A DNA stretch of 64,000 nt from Escherichia coli. GTDB taxonomy: Bacteria > Pseudomonadota > Gammaproteobacteria > Enterobacterales > Enterobacteriaceae. Each line of letters opens with the position of its first letter. The first letter of the stretch is position 1. A program made the translations under genes and the position numbers. Of the stretch, positions 5,094 to 54,033 are shown one piece after another. The stretch lies in NCBI RefSeq assembly GCF_003334785.1, contig NZ_QOWV01000002.1; one strand, written 5' to 3'. The notes under the pieces were generated by a model that made no database searches, was not told where the DNA came from, and was given only the letters and a program-made list of their open reading frames with translations.

Positions 5094-5104
5094 AAGACAG
5101 ATTA

Positions 5105-5190
5105 CCTGGCCTGATAAGACGCGTGAGCGTCGCATCAGGCATCGTTCACCATTGCCGGATGCGGCGTTAACGCCTTATCCGGCCTACGGT
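5105..5190. repeat. BIME (pair of inverted REPs) between convergent ypfH and ypfN
   Basis: cctgataagacgcgtgagcgtcgcatcaggc ... gccggatgcggcgttaacgccttatccggcctacg. Confidence 0.8.
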
Positions 5191-5202
5191 TGAGCACTCA
5201 GC

Positions 5203-5403
5203 TTACTTCTTCGGTTGATCCTTTTTCGGCCAGTCGTCGTCATCGTCCCACTTATCGTTGAAATCACGATGCGGGGGAAGCTCCGGCTTGTTGGCGAGAA
5301 ATTTCTTATGGTCGACGCGCTTGAGATCTTTAATCACGTTCAGCAGGACGCCTACCAAAAAGACAATCACCAGAATCCACCAATATTTAGCCAGCCAGTC
5401 CAT
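5203..5403 (-). CDS. ypfN: small membrane protein YpfN (UPF0370)
   Basis: ORF 5203..5427 trimmed to [24 protein letters not shown] (66 aa); single TM helix, acidic/basic tail. Confidence 0.8.
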
Positions 5404-5430
5404 GCTTATTTCCTCTTGCAGAACCACTCA

Positions 5431-6558
5431 TCAGGCGACGAGCTGTTCCATGATACGTTGATACATACGGGCAAGTAGCTGCAGGTCGGCAGCGTTCACA
5501 CATTCATTAATTTTATGAATAGTGGCATTGACCGGCCCGAGTTCCACCACCTGCGCCCCCATGCGGGCAATAAAGCGCCCGTCGGACGTTCCGCCTGTGG
5601 TCAGTAGCTGCGGTTTAATTTCATTATAGTGCTCAACCGCGTTAACGACCGCATCCACCAGTTTACCGCGCGCGGTCAAAAATGGCTGCCCGGAAAGCCA
5701 CCAATCCACCGTATAGCGCAGTTGATGTTTTTCAAGCAGGGCAAGCACCTGCGCTTTGATCATCTCATCAGTCAGTTCGGTGCTGAAGCGGAAGTTAAAC
5801 TGCACAAACAGTTCACCCGGAATAACGTTGTTACTGCCCGTTCCCGCCTGAATATTGGCAATCTGCATACTGGTCGCCGGGAAGAATTCATTGCCCTGAT
5901 CCCACTCAATAGCCACTAATTCATTAAGGAAAGGTGCTGCGCGATGTACCGGATTGTCAGCCAGATGTGGGTAGGCAACATGCCCCTGAACGCCATGAAT
6001 GGTAAGGTTGCAGGTTAATGATCCGCGACGACCATTTTTCACCACATCACCTACCACTTCGATACTCGACGGTTCGCCAACCAGGCAGTAATCGAGACGC
6101 TCATTACGTGCCATTAACGCTTCGACGACTTTTACCGTACCGTTGTGGGCACTGGCTTCTTCATCAGAGGTGATCAGAAATGCCAGTCGCCCCGTATGGT
6201 TGGGATGTTGTGCGACAAAACGTTCTGCCGCCACCACCATCGCCGCCAGCGAGCCTTTCATATCTGCCGCACCGCGCCCGAATAACATGCCGTCACGAAT
6301 GGTGGGTTCAAACGGGGGATTGATCCAACGATCGGCGTCGCCAGGCGGCACCACGTCGGTATGCCCGGCAAAGGCTAACGTTTCACCCTGCCCACGCCAT
6401 GCCCAAAAATTCTGCGTATCGGCAAAGTCCATGCGTTCAACGGTAAAACCGATCGCCTGCAAACGTTCAATCAACAAAGCCTGGCATCCTGCATCATCAG
6501 GACTCAGGGAAGGGCGGCGAATAAGCTGTTGTGTCAGCTCAATAACCGGGCACGACAT
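5431..6558 (-). CDS. dapE: succinyl-diaminopimelate desuccinylase
   Basis: 375-aa [29 protein letters not shown]; M20 peptidase family, recognised as DapE. Confidence 0.95.
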
Positions 6559-6561
6559 AGA

Positions 6562-6936
<375 letters not shown>

Positions 6937-7298
6937 TTATGAGAATAAATACTCATTTAAGGGTGAAAACATTTTGCCTGCAAATGATTATCAGGAAATA
7001 TAACATTATCGAAGTATTCAAATTAACAACTATTAAATAATATTAAACATTTTTAACGTAAACATTAAGAATATTCATCTTGTTATCTGTCTGTATTTTA
7101 ACCAGAATTAAATCAGTATTAGATGCCGTATGAATATCTCGAAATGTTGCTGTGTATCACATACAAATCATCACCGCAGGACCATAGTATTTACATAAGA
7201 TTTGTCCCCCGGAGGTAGTCATCGCAGCAATCGAGTAAATTAGCTTCACCACGGTATATTGTTTCCGTAGAATACCCATAATTATAAGAGAGGTTGTT

Positions 7299-7358
7299 AT
7301 GATTGAACGTGAACTGGGGAACTGGAAAGACTTTATCGAAGTTATGCTTCGTAAGTAA
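7299..7358 (+). CDS. ypfM: small protein YpfM (19 aa)
   Basis: ATG at 7299 preceded by agagagg RBS; MIERELGNWKDFIEVMLRK*; matches the known K-12 small protein; not in supplied ORF track (too short). Confidence 0.7.
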   Translation: MIERELGNWKDFIEVMLRK

Positions 7359-7418
7359 TTCCTGAGACAAAGTACAAACAGCAAGAACCCGCTGAGCAGG
7401 TTCTTAATCGGAAAGTTG

Positions 7419-7451
7419 AAAAAGGCGACACATTGGCATGTCGCCTTTTTT
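7419..7451. terminator. bidirectional intrinsic terminator between ypfM (+) and acrD (-)
   Basis: aaaaa-ggcgaca-cattggca-tgtcgcc-tttttt; A-run/T-run on both sides. Confidence 0.75.
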
Positions 7452-7456
7452 ATTGC

Positions 7457-10400
7457 TTATTCCGGGCGCGGCTTCAGCGGGAAGCGGCGGCGCACCAGCA
7501 CAAAGAACAGCGGCACGAAGTAAATAGCCAGAATAGTGGCCGAAATCATCCCGCCCATTACGCCAGTACCCACCGCATGCTGACCACCGGAACCGGCACC
7601 CGTGCTGGTTGCCATTGGCAATACGCCGAAGATAAATGCCAGCGAGGTCATCAGAATCGGGCGTAAACGCTGACGGCAGGCGTGGAGCGTCGCTTCAAAC
7701 AGGTCGTGGCCTTTTTGGTTCATCTCGTTAGCAAACTCGACGATCAGGATGGCGTTTTTCGCCGATAAACCAATGACCGTTAACAGGCCCACCTGGAAGT
7801 AAACGTCGTTTTCCAGCCCGCGCATCCAGGTTGCCAGCAGCGCGCCGATTACCCCCAGCGGCACGACCAGCATTACCGAGAACGGCACCGACCAGCTTTC
7901 ATACAACGCAGCCAGACACAGGAATACCACCAGCAAGGAAATGGCGTACAGCGCCGGAGCCTGCGCGCCGGAAAGCCGCTCCTGATACGACATCGCCGTC
8001 CACTCCAGACCAAAGCCGTTTGGCAGCTGCTTCACTAACGATTCCATAATATCCATCGCCGTACCGGTACTGACCCCCGGTGCGGCTTCCCCAACAATCT
8101 CAACCGCAGAATAACCGTTATAGCGTTCCAGACGCGGCGAGCCTGTTTCCCAGCGTGAGGTCGCGAAAGCAGAGAAGGGCACCATGCCGCCATCTTTATT
8201 TCGGACATACCAGAGATTGATGTCATCTGGCAGCATGCGATACGGCGCAGCTGCCTGCACATAGACTTTCTTCACGCGACCGCGATCCATAAAGTCATTC
8301 ACATAGCTCGAACCCCAGGCGGTTTGCAGTGTGTCGTTAATATCGTCGATAGCAACGCCCAGCGCCTGAGCTTTACGCTGGTCGATATCAATCTGCAACT
8401 GCGGACTGTCGTCGAGGCCGTTATGGCGCACACGGGTTAGCTCCGGGTTTTCCGCCGCCAGCGCCAGCAACTGATTACGTGCTGCCATCAGCGCATCGTG
8501 ACCCGCTCCAGCGTGGTCCTGCAACTCCATATCAAAACCTGCAGAACTACCAAGACCGCTAATTGCTGGCGGGCTGCTGGCGATAACGCGAGCTTCTTTA
8601 ATTTGGTTAAACGCCTTCGTTGCACGCTCGATAATGGCAAACGAGGTGCCGGTCTTACTGTCGCGTTCGCTCCAGTCTTTCAGGCGGATAAACATTCGCG
8701 CCACGTTTTGCCCGTTACCCCCAGGGCCAGAACCAACGGTGGCAAACACCGACATGATGTTGTCTTTTTCATGGGTGAAGTAGTATTTCTCGATTTGCTC
8801 AACGACTTTCAGGGTCTGTTGTTGCGTTGAACCGCTGGGCAACTGTACCGAGGTAGTAAACATGCCACGGTCTTCCAGCGGTAAGAACGACGTCGGCAAA
8901 CGCAGGAACAGGAACACCATGCCGCCAAGCAGCAGGACATAAATCACAATCCAGCGCAGGCTACGGTGGAGAATTTTCGCCACCCCTTTTTCGTAGCGTT
9001 CGGCGTTGCGGTTAAACATCTGGTTAAACCAGGCAAAAAAGCCTTTTTGCCCATGATGCTCACCTTTTTTCAGTGGCTTAAGTAGTGTGGCACACAGAGC
9101 CGGAGTGAGGATCATCGCTACCAGTACTGACAGCACCATCGCCGCAACAATGGTAATAGAGAACTGGCGATAGATGGCACCGGTGGTGCCGCCGAAGAAG
9201 GCCATTGGTACAAATACCGCCGAAAGAACCATCGCAATCCCGACCAGTGCCCCCTGGATCTGCCCCATCGATTTACGTGTGGCTTCGCGAGGAGTGAGTC
9301 CTTCCTCACTCATAATACGTTCGACGTTTTCCACCACCACGATGGCGTCATCCACCAGCAGACCGATCGCCAGCACCATCGCGAACATGGTTAAGGTGTT
9401 GACGCTGTAACCGAAGGCGTAAAGTACGGAGAAGGTTCCCATCAACACCACCGGCACGGCGATAGTGGGTATCAGCGTGGCGCGGAAGTTTTGCAGGAAC
9501 AGATACATAACGAGGAAAACCAGAGCGATAGCTTCCAGCAGCGTTTTCACCACGTCTTCAATGGAGGCTTTAACAAACGAGGTGGTTTCATACGCCACCT
9601 TGTATTCCAGTCCATGCGGGAAATACTGCGCCAGCTCGTCGAGACGATTGAGCACCAGCTCCGCTGTCGCCATTTCGTTAGCGCCGGAGGCCAGTTTTAC
9701 CCCCAGCCCGGAGGCTGGCTTACCATTGAAGCGGCTAAGATAATCGTATTTCTCCGCCCCCATTTCGACGGTGGCGACATCGCCCAGCCTTACCTCTGAG
9801 CCGTCCTGATTGACCCGCAAGGTGATATCGCGGAACTGTTCTGGTGTTTGCAGCAGTGACTGGGCGTTAATGGTGGCGTTGAGCGCCTGCTTATCGACGG
9901 AAGGTGTACCACCAAGTTGCCCAACCGCAATCTGCGCGTTCTGTGACTCAATGGCATCAGTGACATCTTTAGCCGTCATCTGGAAACTGTTGAGTTTCGC
10001 CGGGTCCAGCCAGATACGCATGGAATATTGCGAACCATAGGCATCGATATCCCCGACGCCATTCACGCGGCTTAACGGGTCCTGAATATTACTGGCAACA
10101 TAATCAGCAATATCCTGTTTATCCATCGAACCATCGGTAGAGACGAAGGCAATGGTCAGAATGTTGGTATCGCCGGTTTTACGCACCGTCACGCCCTGAT
10201 TTTGCACCGCCTGCGGTAACTTTCGCATGGCTGATTGCAGCTGGTTTTGTACTTGCTGCACGGCTTCGTCCGGATCGGTGCCTGCTTTAAAACTTAAAGT
10301 GACAGATGCCTGACCGGTGCCACTGCTCTGAGATGACATATACATGAGATTATCGAGGCCGGTCATATTTTGCTCGATAACCTGGGTCACGGTGTTTTCC

Positions 10401-10570
10401 AGCGTCTGGGCCGATGCGCCGGGATAGTTAGCGGTCACTCGCACATTCGGTGGCGCGAGATCGGGGTATTGTTCAACGGGCAATGAAAAAATCGCCAGGG
10501 TACCTGTCAGACACAACAGGATTGCCAGCACCCAGGCAAAAATGGGGCGATCAATAAAGAAATTCGCCAT
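7457..10570 (-). CDS. acrD: RND multidrug efflux pump AcrD (aminoglycoside efflux)
   Basis: 1037-aa [26 protein letters not shown]...; RND transporter, recognised as AcrD. Confidence 0.95.
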
Positions 10571-51712: not shown

Positions 51713-51729
51713 AATGGCAAGGTTTGTAA

Positions 51730-51769
51730 CCTGTAGACCTGATAAGACGCGCAAGCGTCGCATCAGGCA
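51730..51769. repeat. single REP between cysA and cysM
   Basis: cctgtagacctgataagacgcgcaagcgtcgcatcaggca. Confidence 0.7.
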
Positions 51770-51791
51770 ACACCACGTATGGATAGAGATC

Positions 51792-52703
51792 GTGAGTACA
51801 TTAGAACAAACAATAGGCAATACGCCTCTGGTGAAGTTGCAGCGAATGGGGCCGGATAACGGCAGTGAAGTGTGGTTAAAACTGGAAGGCAATAACCCGG
51901 CAGGTTCGGTGAAAGATCGTGCGGCACTTTCGATGATCGTCGAGGCGGAAAAGCGCGGGGAAATTAAACCGGGTGATGTCTTAATCGAAGCCACCAGTGG
52001 TAACACCGGCATTGCGCTGGCAATGATTGCCGCGCTGAAAGGCTATCGCATGAAATTGCTGATGCCCGACAACATGAGCCAGGAACGCCGTGCGGCGATG
52101 CGTGCTTATGGTGCGGAACTGATTCTTGTCACCAAAGAGCAGGGCATGGAAGGTGCGCGCGATCTGGCGCTGGAGATGGCGAATCGTGGCGAAGGAAAGC
52201 TGCTCGATCAGTTCAATAATCCCGATAACCCTTATGCGCATTACACCACCACTGGGCCGGAAATCTGGCAGCAAACCGGCGGGCGCATCACTCATTTTGT
52301 CTCCAGCATGGGGACGACCGGCACTATCACCGGCGTCTCACGCTTTATGCGCGAACAATCCAAACCGGTGACCATTGTCGGCCTGCAACCGGAAGAGGGC
52401 AGCAGCATTCCCGGCATTCGCCGCTGGCCTACGGAATATCTGCCGGGGATTTTCAACGCTTCTCTGGTGGATGAGGTGCTGGATATTCATCAGCGCGATG
52501 CGGAAAACACCATGCGCGAACTGGCGGTGCGGGAAGGAATATTCTGTGGCGTCAGCTCCGGCGGCGCGGTTGCCGGAGCACTGCGGGTGGCAAAAGCTAA
52601 CCCTGACGCGGTGGTGGTGGCGATCATCTGCGATCGTGGCGATCGCTACCTTTCTACCGGGGTGTTTGGGGAAGAGCATTTTAGCCAGGGGGCGGGGATT
52701 TAA
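51792..52703 (+). CDS. cysM: cysteine synthase B (O-acetylserine sulfhydrylase B)
   Basis: ORF 51714..52703 trimmed to GTG start giving (M)STLEQTIGNTPLVKLQRMGPDNG (303 aa); PLP-lysine motif SVKDRAA. Confidence 0.9.
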   Translation: MSTLEQTIGNTPLVKLQRMGPDNGSEVWLKLEGNNPAGSVKDRAALSMIVEAEKRGEIKPGDVLIEATSGNTGIALAMIAALKGYRMKLLMPDNMSQERRAAMRAYGAELILVTKEQGMEGARDLALEMANRGEGKLLDQFNNPDNPYAHYTTTGPEIWQQTGGRITHFVSSMGTTGTITGVSRFMREQSKPVTIVGLQPEEGSSIPGIRRWPTEYLPGIFNASLVDEVLDIHQRDAENTMRELAVREGIFCGVSSGGAVAGALRVAKANPDAVVVAIICDRGDRYLSTGVFGEEHFSQGAGI

Positions 52704-52734
52704 GGATTAATAGCATCGGAGACTGATGACAAAC

Positions 52735-52840
<106 letters not shown>

Positions 52841-52891
52841 ATAAACAAAGCGCACTTTTTTAACAGTTGTTGCTGCCGACAAATGCAGTAT

Positions 52892-53626
52892 TTAATTTTC
52901 GTGAGGAAACGCCGTAAGGTCATCAATCATTTTTTGAAGTATTGGTGAGTCCTGACCGTCACCCCATTGAAGAATTTTTGCGGTAAGCTGATGACGCGCT
53001 AGTGCATTGAGTCCCATCTTTTTAAGTTTATGGGAGATTTTACCCATGACTTTAATCTGACCGAATGCAGTTGCGTAGGTAATCATATTGCTCTGGATAG
53101 TGCTCATTTCATCGACTAGTAATTGCGCACGAACATCCTCTTCAAGAATACTGTCCATAGCGATGTATTTCATACCCCACATAGTTTCAATTAACATTTG
53201 AGGGAAATCAGCACAGTCCAGATCCGGCTCTTTACGGAGGCTATTTTCAAGAACGTTTAGAGCATCAGCACCTTCATCGCTGCCAAAAGGAGATTCTTCA
53301 TCCCAGCAACACATATAAAGTGGATCAGTAAAATGGCACTGGAAGTTTGGGTGTGACGTTTTAACATGTAACCCAATTTCTTCATCATCAAAATAGTAGC
53401 GATCCATGAAGTTAAACTTTGGATCTTCTTGATAGCCTTTCTTCATTTTTGCGGCAATCAATTTACTGGCTTCTTTCAGACACTGTTCTTCATTATCGAA
53501 CTCTTTTGTCTGGAATTTACCAATACTACCTACCTTGCCATAGTTGACAGCTAAACTATCCCCTTCGTAATCTATCCACCAAAATTTATTCGATTTTTCA
53601 TCGTGATAAATAAAGCGTTTTTTCAT
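52892..53626 (-). CDS. yfeS: WGR-domain protein of unknown function YfeS
   Basis: 244-aa ORF MKKRFIYHDEKSNKFWWIDYEGDSLAVNYGKVGSIGKFQTKEF (WGR-like N-terminus); visibly AT-rich relative to neighbours. Confidence 0.8.
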   Translation of the reverse strand: MKKRFIYHDEKSNKFWWIDYEGDSLAVNYGKVGSIGKFQTKEFDNEEQCLKEASKLIAAKMKKGYQEDPKFNFMDRYYFDDEEIGLHVKTSHPNFQCHFTDPLYMCCWDEESPFGSDEGADALNVLENSLRKEPDLDCADFPQMLIETMWGMKYIAMDSILEEDVRAQLLVDEMSTIQSNMITYATAFGQIKVMGKISHKLKKMGLNALARHQLTAKILQWGDGQDSPILQKMIDDLTAFPHEN

Positions 53627-53658
53627 GTTACCTCCTGTAAATGCCTTCCCAAAGCGGA

Positions 53659-54033
53659 TTAATTTCCTTCCGCAGGCACCGTTTTATCCGTCTGCGCAAT
53701 TAACGCATGTAAAAAAGGCTGTGCGTTCTCATCGCTCTTACCGGGGATCTTCACAATATACGGCTTCCCAGTAATCGATGACGACGAAGCAACCTTATCA
53801 ATAAACTGCTCGGCAGTGTCAATGCGGTTACGGGTATTGCCGAGCTTCAGACGCAGATGAGAAACCGCTTCATAGCAGGTATGTTCATCACCGTTGCGCA
53901 CAAATATCAAATCCTTTTTCTGTGCTAATCCCTCCAGCATGGCGTTGATGCGGGCTTCTTCATGGGCAGTTAACTTCGCGTAAACGGGGAGTGTCATTAG
54001 TAGTGTAATGACCAGACAAATGATTTTCTTCAT
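53659..54033 (-). CDS. yfeK: secreted protein of unknown function YfeK
   Basis: 124-aa ORF with signal peptide [19 protein letters not shown]. Confidence 0.8.

Follow-up and report, generated by a model that had tools for sequence, protein, structure and literature searches.

Evidence for horizontal acquisition of yfeS, a strain-variable gene of Escherichia coli that encodes a WGR protein with a possible immunity-type function

WGR domains grip nucleic-acid ends in PARPs, and nucleic-acid binding, shown for the PARPs, has been proposed for the family as a whole. The domain is shared by PARP1, PARP2 and PARP3, by the Bacteroides fragilis protein Q64V53 (PDB 2ra8), a WGR-LRR protein of the 'STM4015 family', by E. 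coli proteins of the MolR/YehI type, in which it is combined with DUF4132, and by YfeS of E. coli, the subject of this analysis. Compared with the PARPs, YfeS has a lysine in place of the motif arginine, and by Pfam and fold search it lacks their ADP-ribosyltransferase, helical-subdomain and zinc-finger modules. The C-terminal module of 2ra8 is a leucine-rich repeat, whereas that of YfeS is an unrelated acidic helical domain. The WGR domains of MolR/YehI-type proteins are 44–47% identical to that of YfeS over residues 3–74, but the BLAST similarity ends at residue 74 and Pfam finds no DUF4132 in YfeS.

A second group of described systems bears on the genes found near relatives of YfeS. The immunity proteins of polymorphic toxins are small, cytoplasmic, patchily distributed across phyla and found in heterogeneous arrays, and several Imm families were named solely as 'found in heterogeneous polyimmunity loci' (Zhang et al. 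2012). The rAID-1 clusters consist of at least two co-directional genes with a GC content of 41% or less, separated by repetitive integron-like intergenic sequences; they contain Imm-SUKH, Imm11, Imm26, Imm-ANK and many hypothetical genes, and have at their 5' end a XerD-like tyrosine recombinase with at least 44% identity to BF9343_RS08045 (Ross et al. 2019). The YfeS family is absent from Zhang et al. (2012) and from the supplement of Ross et al. (2019), and we found no publication in the searchable literature that ties either WGR or YfeS to immunity.

We examined yfeS within a window of 64,000 nt, the whole stretch of DNA analysed here, which covers the cysW-cysA-cysM / yfeS-yfeK / pdxK / crr-ptsI region of E. 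coli. The gene encodes a protein of 28.2 kDa (pI 5.0) that begins with MKKRFIYHDEKSNKFWW and in which sequence analysis finds neither a signal peptide nor a hydrophobic segment. It lies 32 nt downstream of yfeK on the same strand, while cysM converges on it from the opposite side. The spacer between yfeK and yfeS provides yfeS with its own ribosome-binding site, and a scan of these 32 nt found no sigma-70-like promoter. The only models matched by YfeK are the 'hypothetical protein' models PRK10318 and DUF5329. The genes and signals of the locus are:

52892..53626, minus strand, yfeS coding sequence, 244 amino acids plus stop.
53631..53635, minus strand, Shine-Dalgarno sequence GGAGG of yfeS.
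53659..54033, minus strand, yfeK, a core enterobacterial gene of 124 amino acids with a signal peptide (DUF5329).

The original prediction held that yfeS is AT-rich, near 40% GC by eye, relative to cysM and pdxK, and measurement agrees: yfeS has 39.2% GC (GC1 50.6, GC2 30.2, GC3 36.7), compared to 56.5% for cysM and 52.1% for pdxK, as well as 58.7% for cysA, 46.4% for yfeK and 53.2% for the whole window. Among all 735-nt windows yfeS falls at the 0.5th percentile, with only one other equally AT-rich place in the 64 kb, and its GC3 is the lowest among the 56 ORFs of at least 100 amino acids (mean 0.587, SD 0.061; second lowest 0.50). A proposed comparison of codon usage gave a mixed result, in that GC3 sets yfeS apart but a home-made codon-typicality index, built from the window's own genes, discriminates little. 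Since yfeS ranks only ninth of 56 by this index, we consider the index uninformative and GC3 the clear signal.

Comparison with strains that lack yfeS reveals the gene as part of a discrete insert. We inspected the empty allele in an O157:H7 strain and in isolates from a urinary tract and from a chicken. In these three genomes just 2 bp lie between the cysM and yfeK stop codons, and YfeK is 122 amino acids long and ends in ...KTVPAQ. In the filled allele, 967 nt replace the 8 nt ATTATTGC of the empty allele and supply a new 3' end to yfeK, such that YfeK ends in ...KTVPAEGN. The insert and its parts, for which no strand is assigned, are:

52705..53671, the 967-nt insert, consisting of a REP pair, yfeS and the new yfeK 3' end.
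52743..52842, two REP elements forming a BIME, located downstream of yfeS within the insert.
52704..52711, left copy of GGATTAAT, an 8-nt direct repeat that bounds the insert.
53656..53663, right copy of the same repeat, within which yfeK of the filled allele has its stop codon.

The REP pair matches Rfam ES036 (40.9 bits) and part of naRNA4, and elements of this kind occur in tens of copies per E. coli genome. Apart from the 8-nt direct repeat and the REP pair, we found no mobility feature in the insert: it has no integrase, transposase or tRNA gene. We considered that the empty allele might be a simple deletion between the two copies of GGATTAAT, but rejected this origin because the sequence of the empty allele (…GCGCAATAATC…) differs from the predicted product.

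The insert is polymorphic within E. coli. The yfeS segment is present in 1387 of 5426 complete genomes (25.6%), always in a single chromosomal copy, while every E. coli genome searched has yfeK and the flanks, such that 74% of E. coli carry yfeK alone. The yfeS alleles fall into two classes, one of 1,223 records with identities of 99% or more and one of 165 records at 95–99%. An apparent plasmid copy of 70% identity (NZ_CP098226.1) was discarded, since it is a frameshift-ridden version of the same chromosomal ptsI-cysA region. The original prediction described yfeS as conserved in K-12; the gene is indeed present there, but 'conserved' is too strong, because yfeS is accessory within E. coli and truncated in Shigella.

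Outside Escherichia, contigs from Pseudocitrobacter have the arrangement yfeK(...PAEGN)-yfeS-REP-cysM with junction sequences identical to those of K-12, and in P. faecalis the site is empty, with YfeK ending in ...PAQ and a gap of 2 bp. Thus, both alleles segregate in both genera. In Klebsiella the same junction holds a SnoaL-like gene, and in Salmonella only a doubtful ORF of 116 codons. When K-12 is compared with Pseudocitrobacter, yfeS has a dS of 0.19, 2.4–6.7 times below the flanking genes cysM (0.45), crr (0.63) and yfeK (1.27); between two E. coli alleles it is likewise lower in yfeS (0.06) than in cysM (0.16) or yfeK (0.30). The lower dS of yfeS places the spread of the cassette later than the divergence of the flanking genes, with homologous recombination through yfeK and cysM as the presumed route. 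On these sequence comparisons, yfeS is best described as a strain-variable cassette of ~1 kb that has been exchanged between genera, rather than as a core gene.

The wider distribution of YfeS does not follow that of the enterobacteria. When 100,044 species were scanned, each represented by a single genome, 174 relatives emerged, and among the best 80 of these the sole enterobacterial ones were in a Pseudocitrobacter MAG (94% amino acid identity) and an Escherichia sp. fragment. The other relatives within the best 80 are 31–58% identical and come from Paenibacillus, Bacteroides, Dysgonomonas, Neisseria, Fusobacterium, Clostridia and others. The next-closest YfeS proteins (~50–65% identical) similarly lie outside Enterobacteriaceae, with Paenibacillus, Bacteroides, Dysgonomonas, Lysinibacillus and Clostridium as named sources, and relatives of lower identity occur in Neisseria, Fusobacterium, Porphyromonas, Exiguobacterium and one archaeal MAG. 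Thus, the horizontal acquisition of yfeS that the original prediction suggested from composition is now strongly supported at the sequence level by the atypical composition, the presence/absence polymorphism, the incongruent phyletic pattern and the low dS. Specifically, the insertion is polymorphic at a frequency of one in four genomes, the junction recurs in Pseudocitrobacter, dS is lower than in the flanks, no orthologue was found elsewhere in Enterobacteriaceae among the best 80 of the 174 relatives, and the nearest named relatives are Firmicutes and Bacteroidota.

We examined the protein itself by sequence searches and structure prediction, which divide it into two domains:

53414..53602, minus strand, WGR domain by Pfam, residues 9–71, mildly basic (pI 8.6).
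52895..53413, minus strand, C-terminal domain (YfeS_C), residues 72–244, predicted to be all-alpha, with a net charge of -15 and a pI of 4.6.
53258..53395, minus strand, the most conserved stretch in alignments, residues 78–123, YFDDEExG..TSHPNF..Y..PFGSDEGxDxL.

The N-terminal WGR-like motif of the original prediction is a true WGR domain both by sequence and by predicted fold. It matches PF05406, the sole Pfam domain in YfeS, with an E-value of 1.2e-17 (64.2 bits, positions 11–78 of the 79 in the model), and the predicted fold superposes on solved WGR domains, which are the PDB relatives of this part of the protein only. Among 61 homologues W16 and G30 are invariant, and the motif reads N-Y-G-K, with K31 (at least 90% conserved) where arginine is expected. 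The AlphaFold2 model built from the 61-sequence alignment (pLDDT 96.7, pTM 0.93) has two domains: the WGR part, a four-stranded sheet with a helix, and, after a conserved extended segment, a bundle of long helices.

The C-terminal region could not be assigned in the original prediction, and searches of Pfam and of structures likewise find no match to any described family. Residues 72–244 have no significant matches in Pfam, NCBIfam, PADLOC, PHROGs or PDB sequences, and a fold search found no solved relative in the PDB, although the domain modelled alone by AlphaFold2 has a pLDDT of 96.0. Ten residues are invariant in the 61 homologues (T90, H92, Y104, P113, G115, D117, G119, D121, K192 and G195), and the invariant residues cluster in the motif TSHPxF...PFG[SN]DxGxD. 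A profile of residues 72–244, searched against 1.84 billion representative proteins with a cut-off of E < 1e-3, identified 764 clusters, many of them stand-alone proteins of ~165–190 amino acids and others with one or two WGR domains or, in some cases, longer fusions. Since it occurs both alone and in several fusions, and has neither a Pfam family nor a solved structure, YfeS_C is an independent mobile domain.

Pfam searches with 42 of the YfeS_C proteins found WGR in 11, DUF4253 in four and DUF4240 in one, as well as a weak Imm26-like N-terminal region with an E-value of only 0.15. To our knowledge, neither DUF4253 nor DUF4240 is a proven immunity domain. Strong acidity is a family-wide feature of the C-terminal domain (mean net charge -15, pI 4.6), in contrast to the WGR part, which ranges from near neutral to basic. 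A search of AFDB50 with the model of the C-terminal domain yielded only uncharacterised relatives, some of them labelled 'MolR family', and these labels appear to have been carried over from the annotation of the WGR-containing MolR. Identity between phyla is 50–58%, an unusually high conservation for a protein engaged in an arms race.

We compared the genomic neighbourhoods of 80 YfeS-family loci and found no neighbour that is conserved across taxa, since sharing occurs within genera only. Most of these neighbourhoods consist of housekeeping genes. In Neisseria, gatC and gatA flank an islet of four genes that includes the homologue, an arrangement comparable to the position of yfeS between cysM and yfeK in E. 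coli. In four Bacteroidales loci (L009, L016, L017 and L023), the homologue is one of 8–10 small, unrelated co-directional genes with a GC content of 33.8–37.5%, compared to 39–43% in the surroundings, and the arrays contain two or three copies of 53–66-nt intergenic repeats composed of a hairpin and a CCATTA motif. By Pfam, these arrays contain Imm43, Imm26, Imm11, Tdi1 (T6SS immunity), two LRR proteins, one ankyrin protein and many DUFs. Similarly, 19 neighbours in Firmicutes and Neisseria include Imm68, Imm10, SUKH-1/5/6, DUF4303, DUF4253 and DUF4240; these names are a plain listing of neighbours rather than a measure of enrichment. DUF4303 is itself predicted as an immunity domain in Stenotrophomonas.

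Judged by the gene content of its neighbourhoods, the YfeS family would qualify as one of the families of heterogeneous polyimmunity loci in the sense of Zhang et al. (2012), and, like the immunity proteins described there, its members are small, cytoplasmic and patchily distributed across phyla, and occur in heterogeneous arrays. Unlike those proteins, YfeS has no toxin gene immediately upstream (~85 loci) and no Imm or SUKH match in Pfam, and it is more conserved than a typical immunity protein. Indeed, in the ~85 loci, including three contexts of stand-alone C-domains, no toxin gene adjoins any member of the family; the identifiable large upstream genes encode an S-layer-like protein, a LysR regulator and an IS5 transposase, and several others have no NCBIfam match. 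The layout and content of rAID-1 are matched by the four Bacteroidales loci only, and not by the single-gene locus of E. coli, where yfeS is solitary, with neither array nor recombinase. Next to the Bacteroidales arrays we located no XerD-like recombinase, and the gene at the far-side boundary is RsgA. There was one Phage_integrase match among 41 array-region proteins, which is not tied to a position, and a candidate recombinase of 329 amino acids (L016:1664-2650) was rejected, as it is an LRR protein.

We tentatively favour the view, to which we give a little less than an even chance, that YfeS is an orphan immunity-type binding protein. The gene itself is best explained as a horizontally acquired single-gene cassette of ~0.97 kb with its REP pair, which entered between cysM and yfeK, where the two stop codons converge, and has since passed between Escherichia and Pseudocitrobacter, with recombination in the core genes on either side as the route. 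The yfeK transcript, which depends on sigma-E, probably also carries yfeS in K-12, where translation would start from the gene's own ribosome-binding site. The product is predicted to be a soluble, cytoplasmic protein in which a WGR 'head' packs against an acidic all-alpha domain. Its proposed role would be to bind, without enzymatic activity, and thereby neutralise a toxin that rival bacteria deliver, with the acidic C-domain as the putative toxin-binding surface. What the analysis shows directly is the composition, the insertion polymorphism, the phyletic pattern, the domain architecture, the predicted fold and the content of the neighbourhoods; we infer the immunity function, a role of the C-domain in binding and the kind of target. 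We do not rate the function higher because no toxin neighbours were found, the contexts are mostly housekeeping, conservation across phyla is high, and a histidine and aspartates are invariant.

The published experimental data on YfeS are consistent with the original prediction that the protein is functionally uncharacterised, in that the searchable literature offers screens only, and a survey of hypothetical proteins in K-12 from 2025 was likewise unable to assign a function to yfeS. The literature treats yfeK and yfeS as a single unit under sigma-E control, with both genes induced together by envelope stress and following restriction attack, and in ETEC a MarA ChIP peak is reported between yfeS and cysM. 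Overexpression of YfeK arrests growth, while overexpression of YfeS has no effect; we counted this harmlessness in favour of an immunity function. The Keio deletion of yfeS is sensitive to boric acid (MIC of 45–50 mM compared to 100 mM), and complementation is partial, to 65 mM. This sensitivity, the only reported phenotype, is unrelated to interbacterial antagonism, and we counted it against an immunity function, as we did the null result with PADLOC.

The main alternative is that YfeS is a sensor or an accessory factor in repair that binds nucleic acid, nucleotide or ADP-ribose, with the WGR domain seated on a DNA or RNA end or lesion, as in PARP1–3, and the His/Asp-rich loop of the C-domain binding a metal or ligand or performing catalysis. 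We consider this alternative unlikely, although its chance is appreciable, since the 50–58% identity between phyla and the invariant H92, D117 and D121 fit a ligand, metal or catalytic site better than the interface of a protein in an arms race.

A somewhat smaller chance, still worth weighing, attaches to the idea that yfeS in E. coli is a functionless or near-neutral passenger in decay, kept by hitch-hiking and recombination. In favour of this, yfeS is an accessory gene that is interrupted by IS1 in one strain and truncated in another, with numerous truncated forms in the protein clusters of E. coli and Shigella; moreover, the lack of phenotype upon overexpression and a dN/dS above that of the neighbouring genes are both consistent with decay. 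Nevertheless, the dN/dS of 0.13–0.22 indicates purifying selection on the sequence of yfeS, though weaker than on its neighbours, 1378 of the 1387 carriers retain at least 80% of the gene at 95% nucleotide identity or more, and the phenotype of the Keio deletion can be complemented in part.

Within the immunity proposal itself, a more specific form holds that proteins combining WGR with YfeS_C are a hitherto unrecognised, widely exchanged immunity family directed against nucleic-acid-targeting or ADP-ribosylating interbacterial toxins, in which the WGR domain, as in PARPs, would dock either on an ART-fold toxin or on the nucleic acid that is the toxin's substrate, leaving the acidic C-domain to block the toxin. 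This form is doubtful, and we rate it slightly below the passenger explanation.

A role for YfeS in the sigma-E envelope-stress response, together with periplasmic YfeK, would account for two genes that lie 32 nt apart on the same strand and are reported as one co-induced sigma-E unit, but we consider such a role quite improbable. YfeK is kept across Enterobacteriaceae without yfeS and stands alone in nearly three quarters of E. coli, YfeS has no signal peptide, and in the loci compared outside the E. coli/Pseudocitrobacter setting a DUF5329 gene never adjoins a YfeS homologue. Since most E. coli and other genera have yfeK without yfeS, the co-regulation by sigma-E is likely a by-product of the landing site. 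Least probable of all, with only a slight chance, is a role in anti-phage defence or counter-defence: one homologue lies beside BREX-like genes (a BrxA Pfam match among the neighbours and a 1195-aa gene downstream), three phage protein families in PHROGs match, and one C-domain homologue of the stand-alone type appears in short database records that carry the label Listeria phage, but the PHROG matches cover WGR only (beyond residue 70 they are weak, with E above 0.06), the Listeria phage records are unannotated fragments of 6–8 kb, there is no PADLOC match, and no recurrent association with defence genes was found in the 80 loci.

The analysis has several consequences for E. coli and for the WGR family. 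The gene is among the few in E. coli K-12 that remain without a function, and for it there is now a testable proposal. Its C-terminal part represents a second, mobile domain family, with hundreds of clusters but no Pfam entry or solved structure. Moreover, that yfeS varies among strains bears on how knock-out screens in K-12, the one with boric acid among them, are to be read. If the immunity proposal proves false, a well-documented small horizontal insertion remains. If it proves true, YfeS would provide the first functional context for bacterial WGR domains and a new member of the pool of orphan immunity genes exchanged among gut bacteria; and if its targets were nucleic-acid-targeting or ADP-ribosylating toxins, K-12 would carry an orphan immunity gene from a pool shared with distant relatives in the gut and the environment, among them Bacteroidales and Firmicutes.

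The 967-nt insert that carries yfeS is bounded by a short direct repeat and holds two further elements downstream of the gene. The relevant features, in window coordinates, are as follows.

52704-52711 and 53656-53663: 8-nt direct repeat GGATTAAT, lying exactly at both insert ends
52743-52842: REP pair (BIME), within the insert, downstream of yfeS
52859-52873: TTTAACAGTTGTTGC (reverse complement gcaacaactgttaaa), just 3' of the yfeS stop, within the acquired insert
51714-52703: cysM as a mechanical ORF (start 51714, 329 aa); in RefSeq the protein has 303 aa and starts at 51792

The stop codon of yfeK falls within the right-hand copy of GGATTAAT (53656-53663). Judged from the sequence, the two copies resemble a target-site duplication, but despite this resemblance we found no transposase or integrase in the insert. 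We considered that genomes without yfeS might have arisen by simple deletion between the GGATTAAT repeats, and rejected this explanation since such an event would have left a sequence other than that of the empty allele. Pseudocitrobacter carries a nearly identical copy of the REP pair, and therefore the REP pair travels with the yfeS cassette; compared with Rfam, this element exceeds the gathering score for ES036/CssrF and matches naRNA4 in part. The sequence next to the yfeS stop is that of a MarA ChIP-seq site reported in ETEC, in the intergenic region between the convergent yfeS and cysM genes (TTTAACAGTTGTTGC / gcaacaactgttaaa; PMC5684230). The extra N-terminus of the 329-aa cysM ORF is probably not translated.

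Only one other stretch of the 64-kb window is as AT-rich as yfeS: it spans ~6376-7700, reaches a minimum of 36.7% GC over 735 nt, and overlaps the interval that separates the ORF at 6562..6918 from the one at 7457..10570.

Homologues of YfeS in other genomes occupy several settings, three of which are given here in locus coordinates.

L039-L045, ~5100-9600: four-gene islet in Neisseria, inserted between gatC and gatA
L013, 4312-6933: Dysgonomonas homologue, wedged between genes of 330 aa and 289 aa, the intervening gaps measuring 21 and 3 nt
L014, 7249-12074: homologue with probable BREX genes ~500 nt downstream

The Neisseria islet, which is bounded by translation genes, encodes a 161-aa protein of unknown function, the YfeS homologue, a protein with DUF6714 and a second protein of unknown function, of 198 aa. 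The Dysgonomonas neighbors are probably the AAA_3 (MoxR-like) and DUF58 Pfam matches of the neighbor set, and that set also includes a BrxA match; at L014, a 1195-aa gene lies downstream. Four Bacteroidales loci (L009, L016, L017 and L023) are low-GC arrays of 8-10 small co-directional genes, spaced by repeated 53-66-nt elements with a hairpin and a CCATTA motif, and encoding Imm43, Imm26, Imm11, Tdi1, LRR and Ank proteins along with the YfeS homologue. These arrays resemble the recombinase-associated orphan-immunity arrays rAID-1 (Ross et al. 2019); a recombinase of the rAID-1 type was sought for them and not located.

Disruptions of yfeS include an IS1 insertion within the gene in E. coli strain LR-03 (H1/H21), a half-length gene in E. 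coli ET650 (H50), and truncated proteins of 101-155 aa in Shigella. Nearby, in E. coli EC1 (L002), an IS4 element has inserted between pdxK and crr. We discounted an apparent plasmid-borne yfeS on NZ_CP098226.1 (L084; 50 kb, labelled an E. coli plasmid): its ptsI-crr-pdxK-yfeK-yfeS-cysM-cysA region lacks annotation and is a frameshift-ridden copy of the chromosomal one, and the record looks rather like a noisy or misassigned assembly.

The gene setting of yfeK also differs among Pseudocitrobacter (L085/L090), Klebsiella (L088) and Salmonella (L087). In Pseudocitrobacter, where a CSS-motif EAL gene adjoins crr, a SnoaL-like gene is located upstream of yfeK, and in Klebsiella such a gene is located between yfeK and cysM; GntR and GATase genes separate pdxK from yfeK in both Salmonella and Klebsiella. 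The yfeK junction is a small accessory-gene hotspot.
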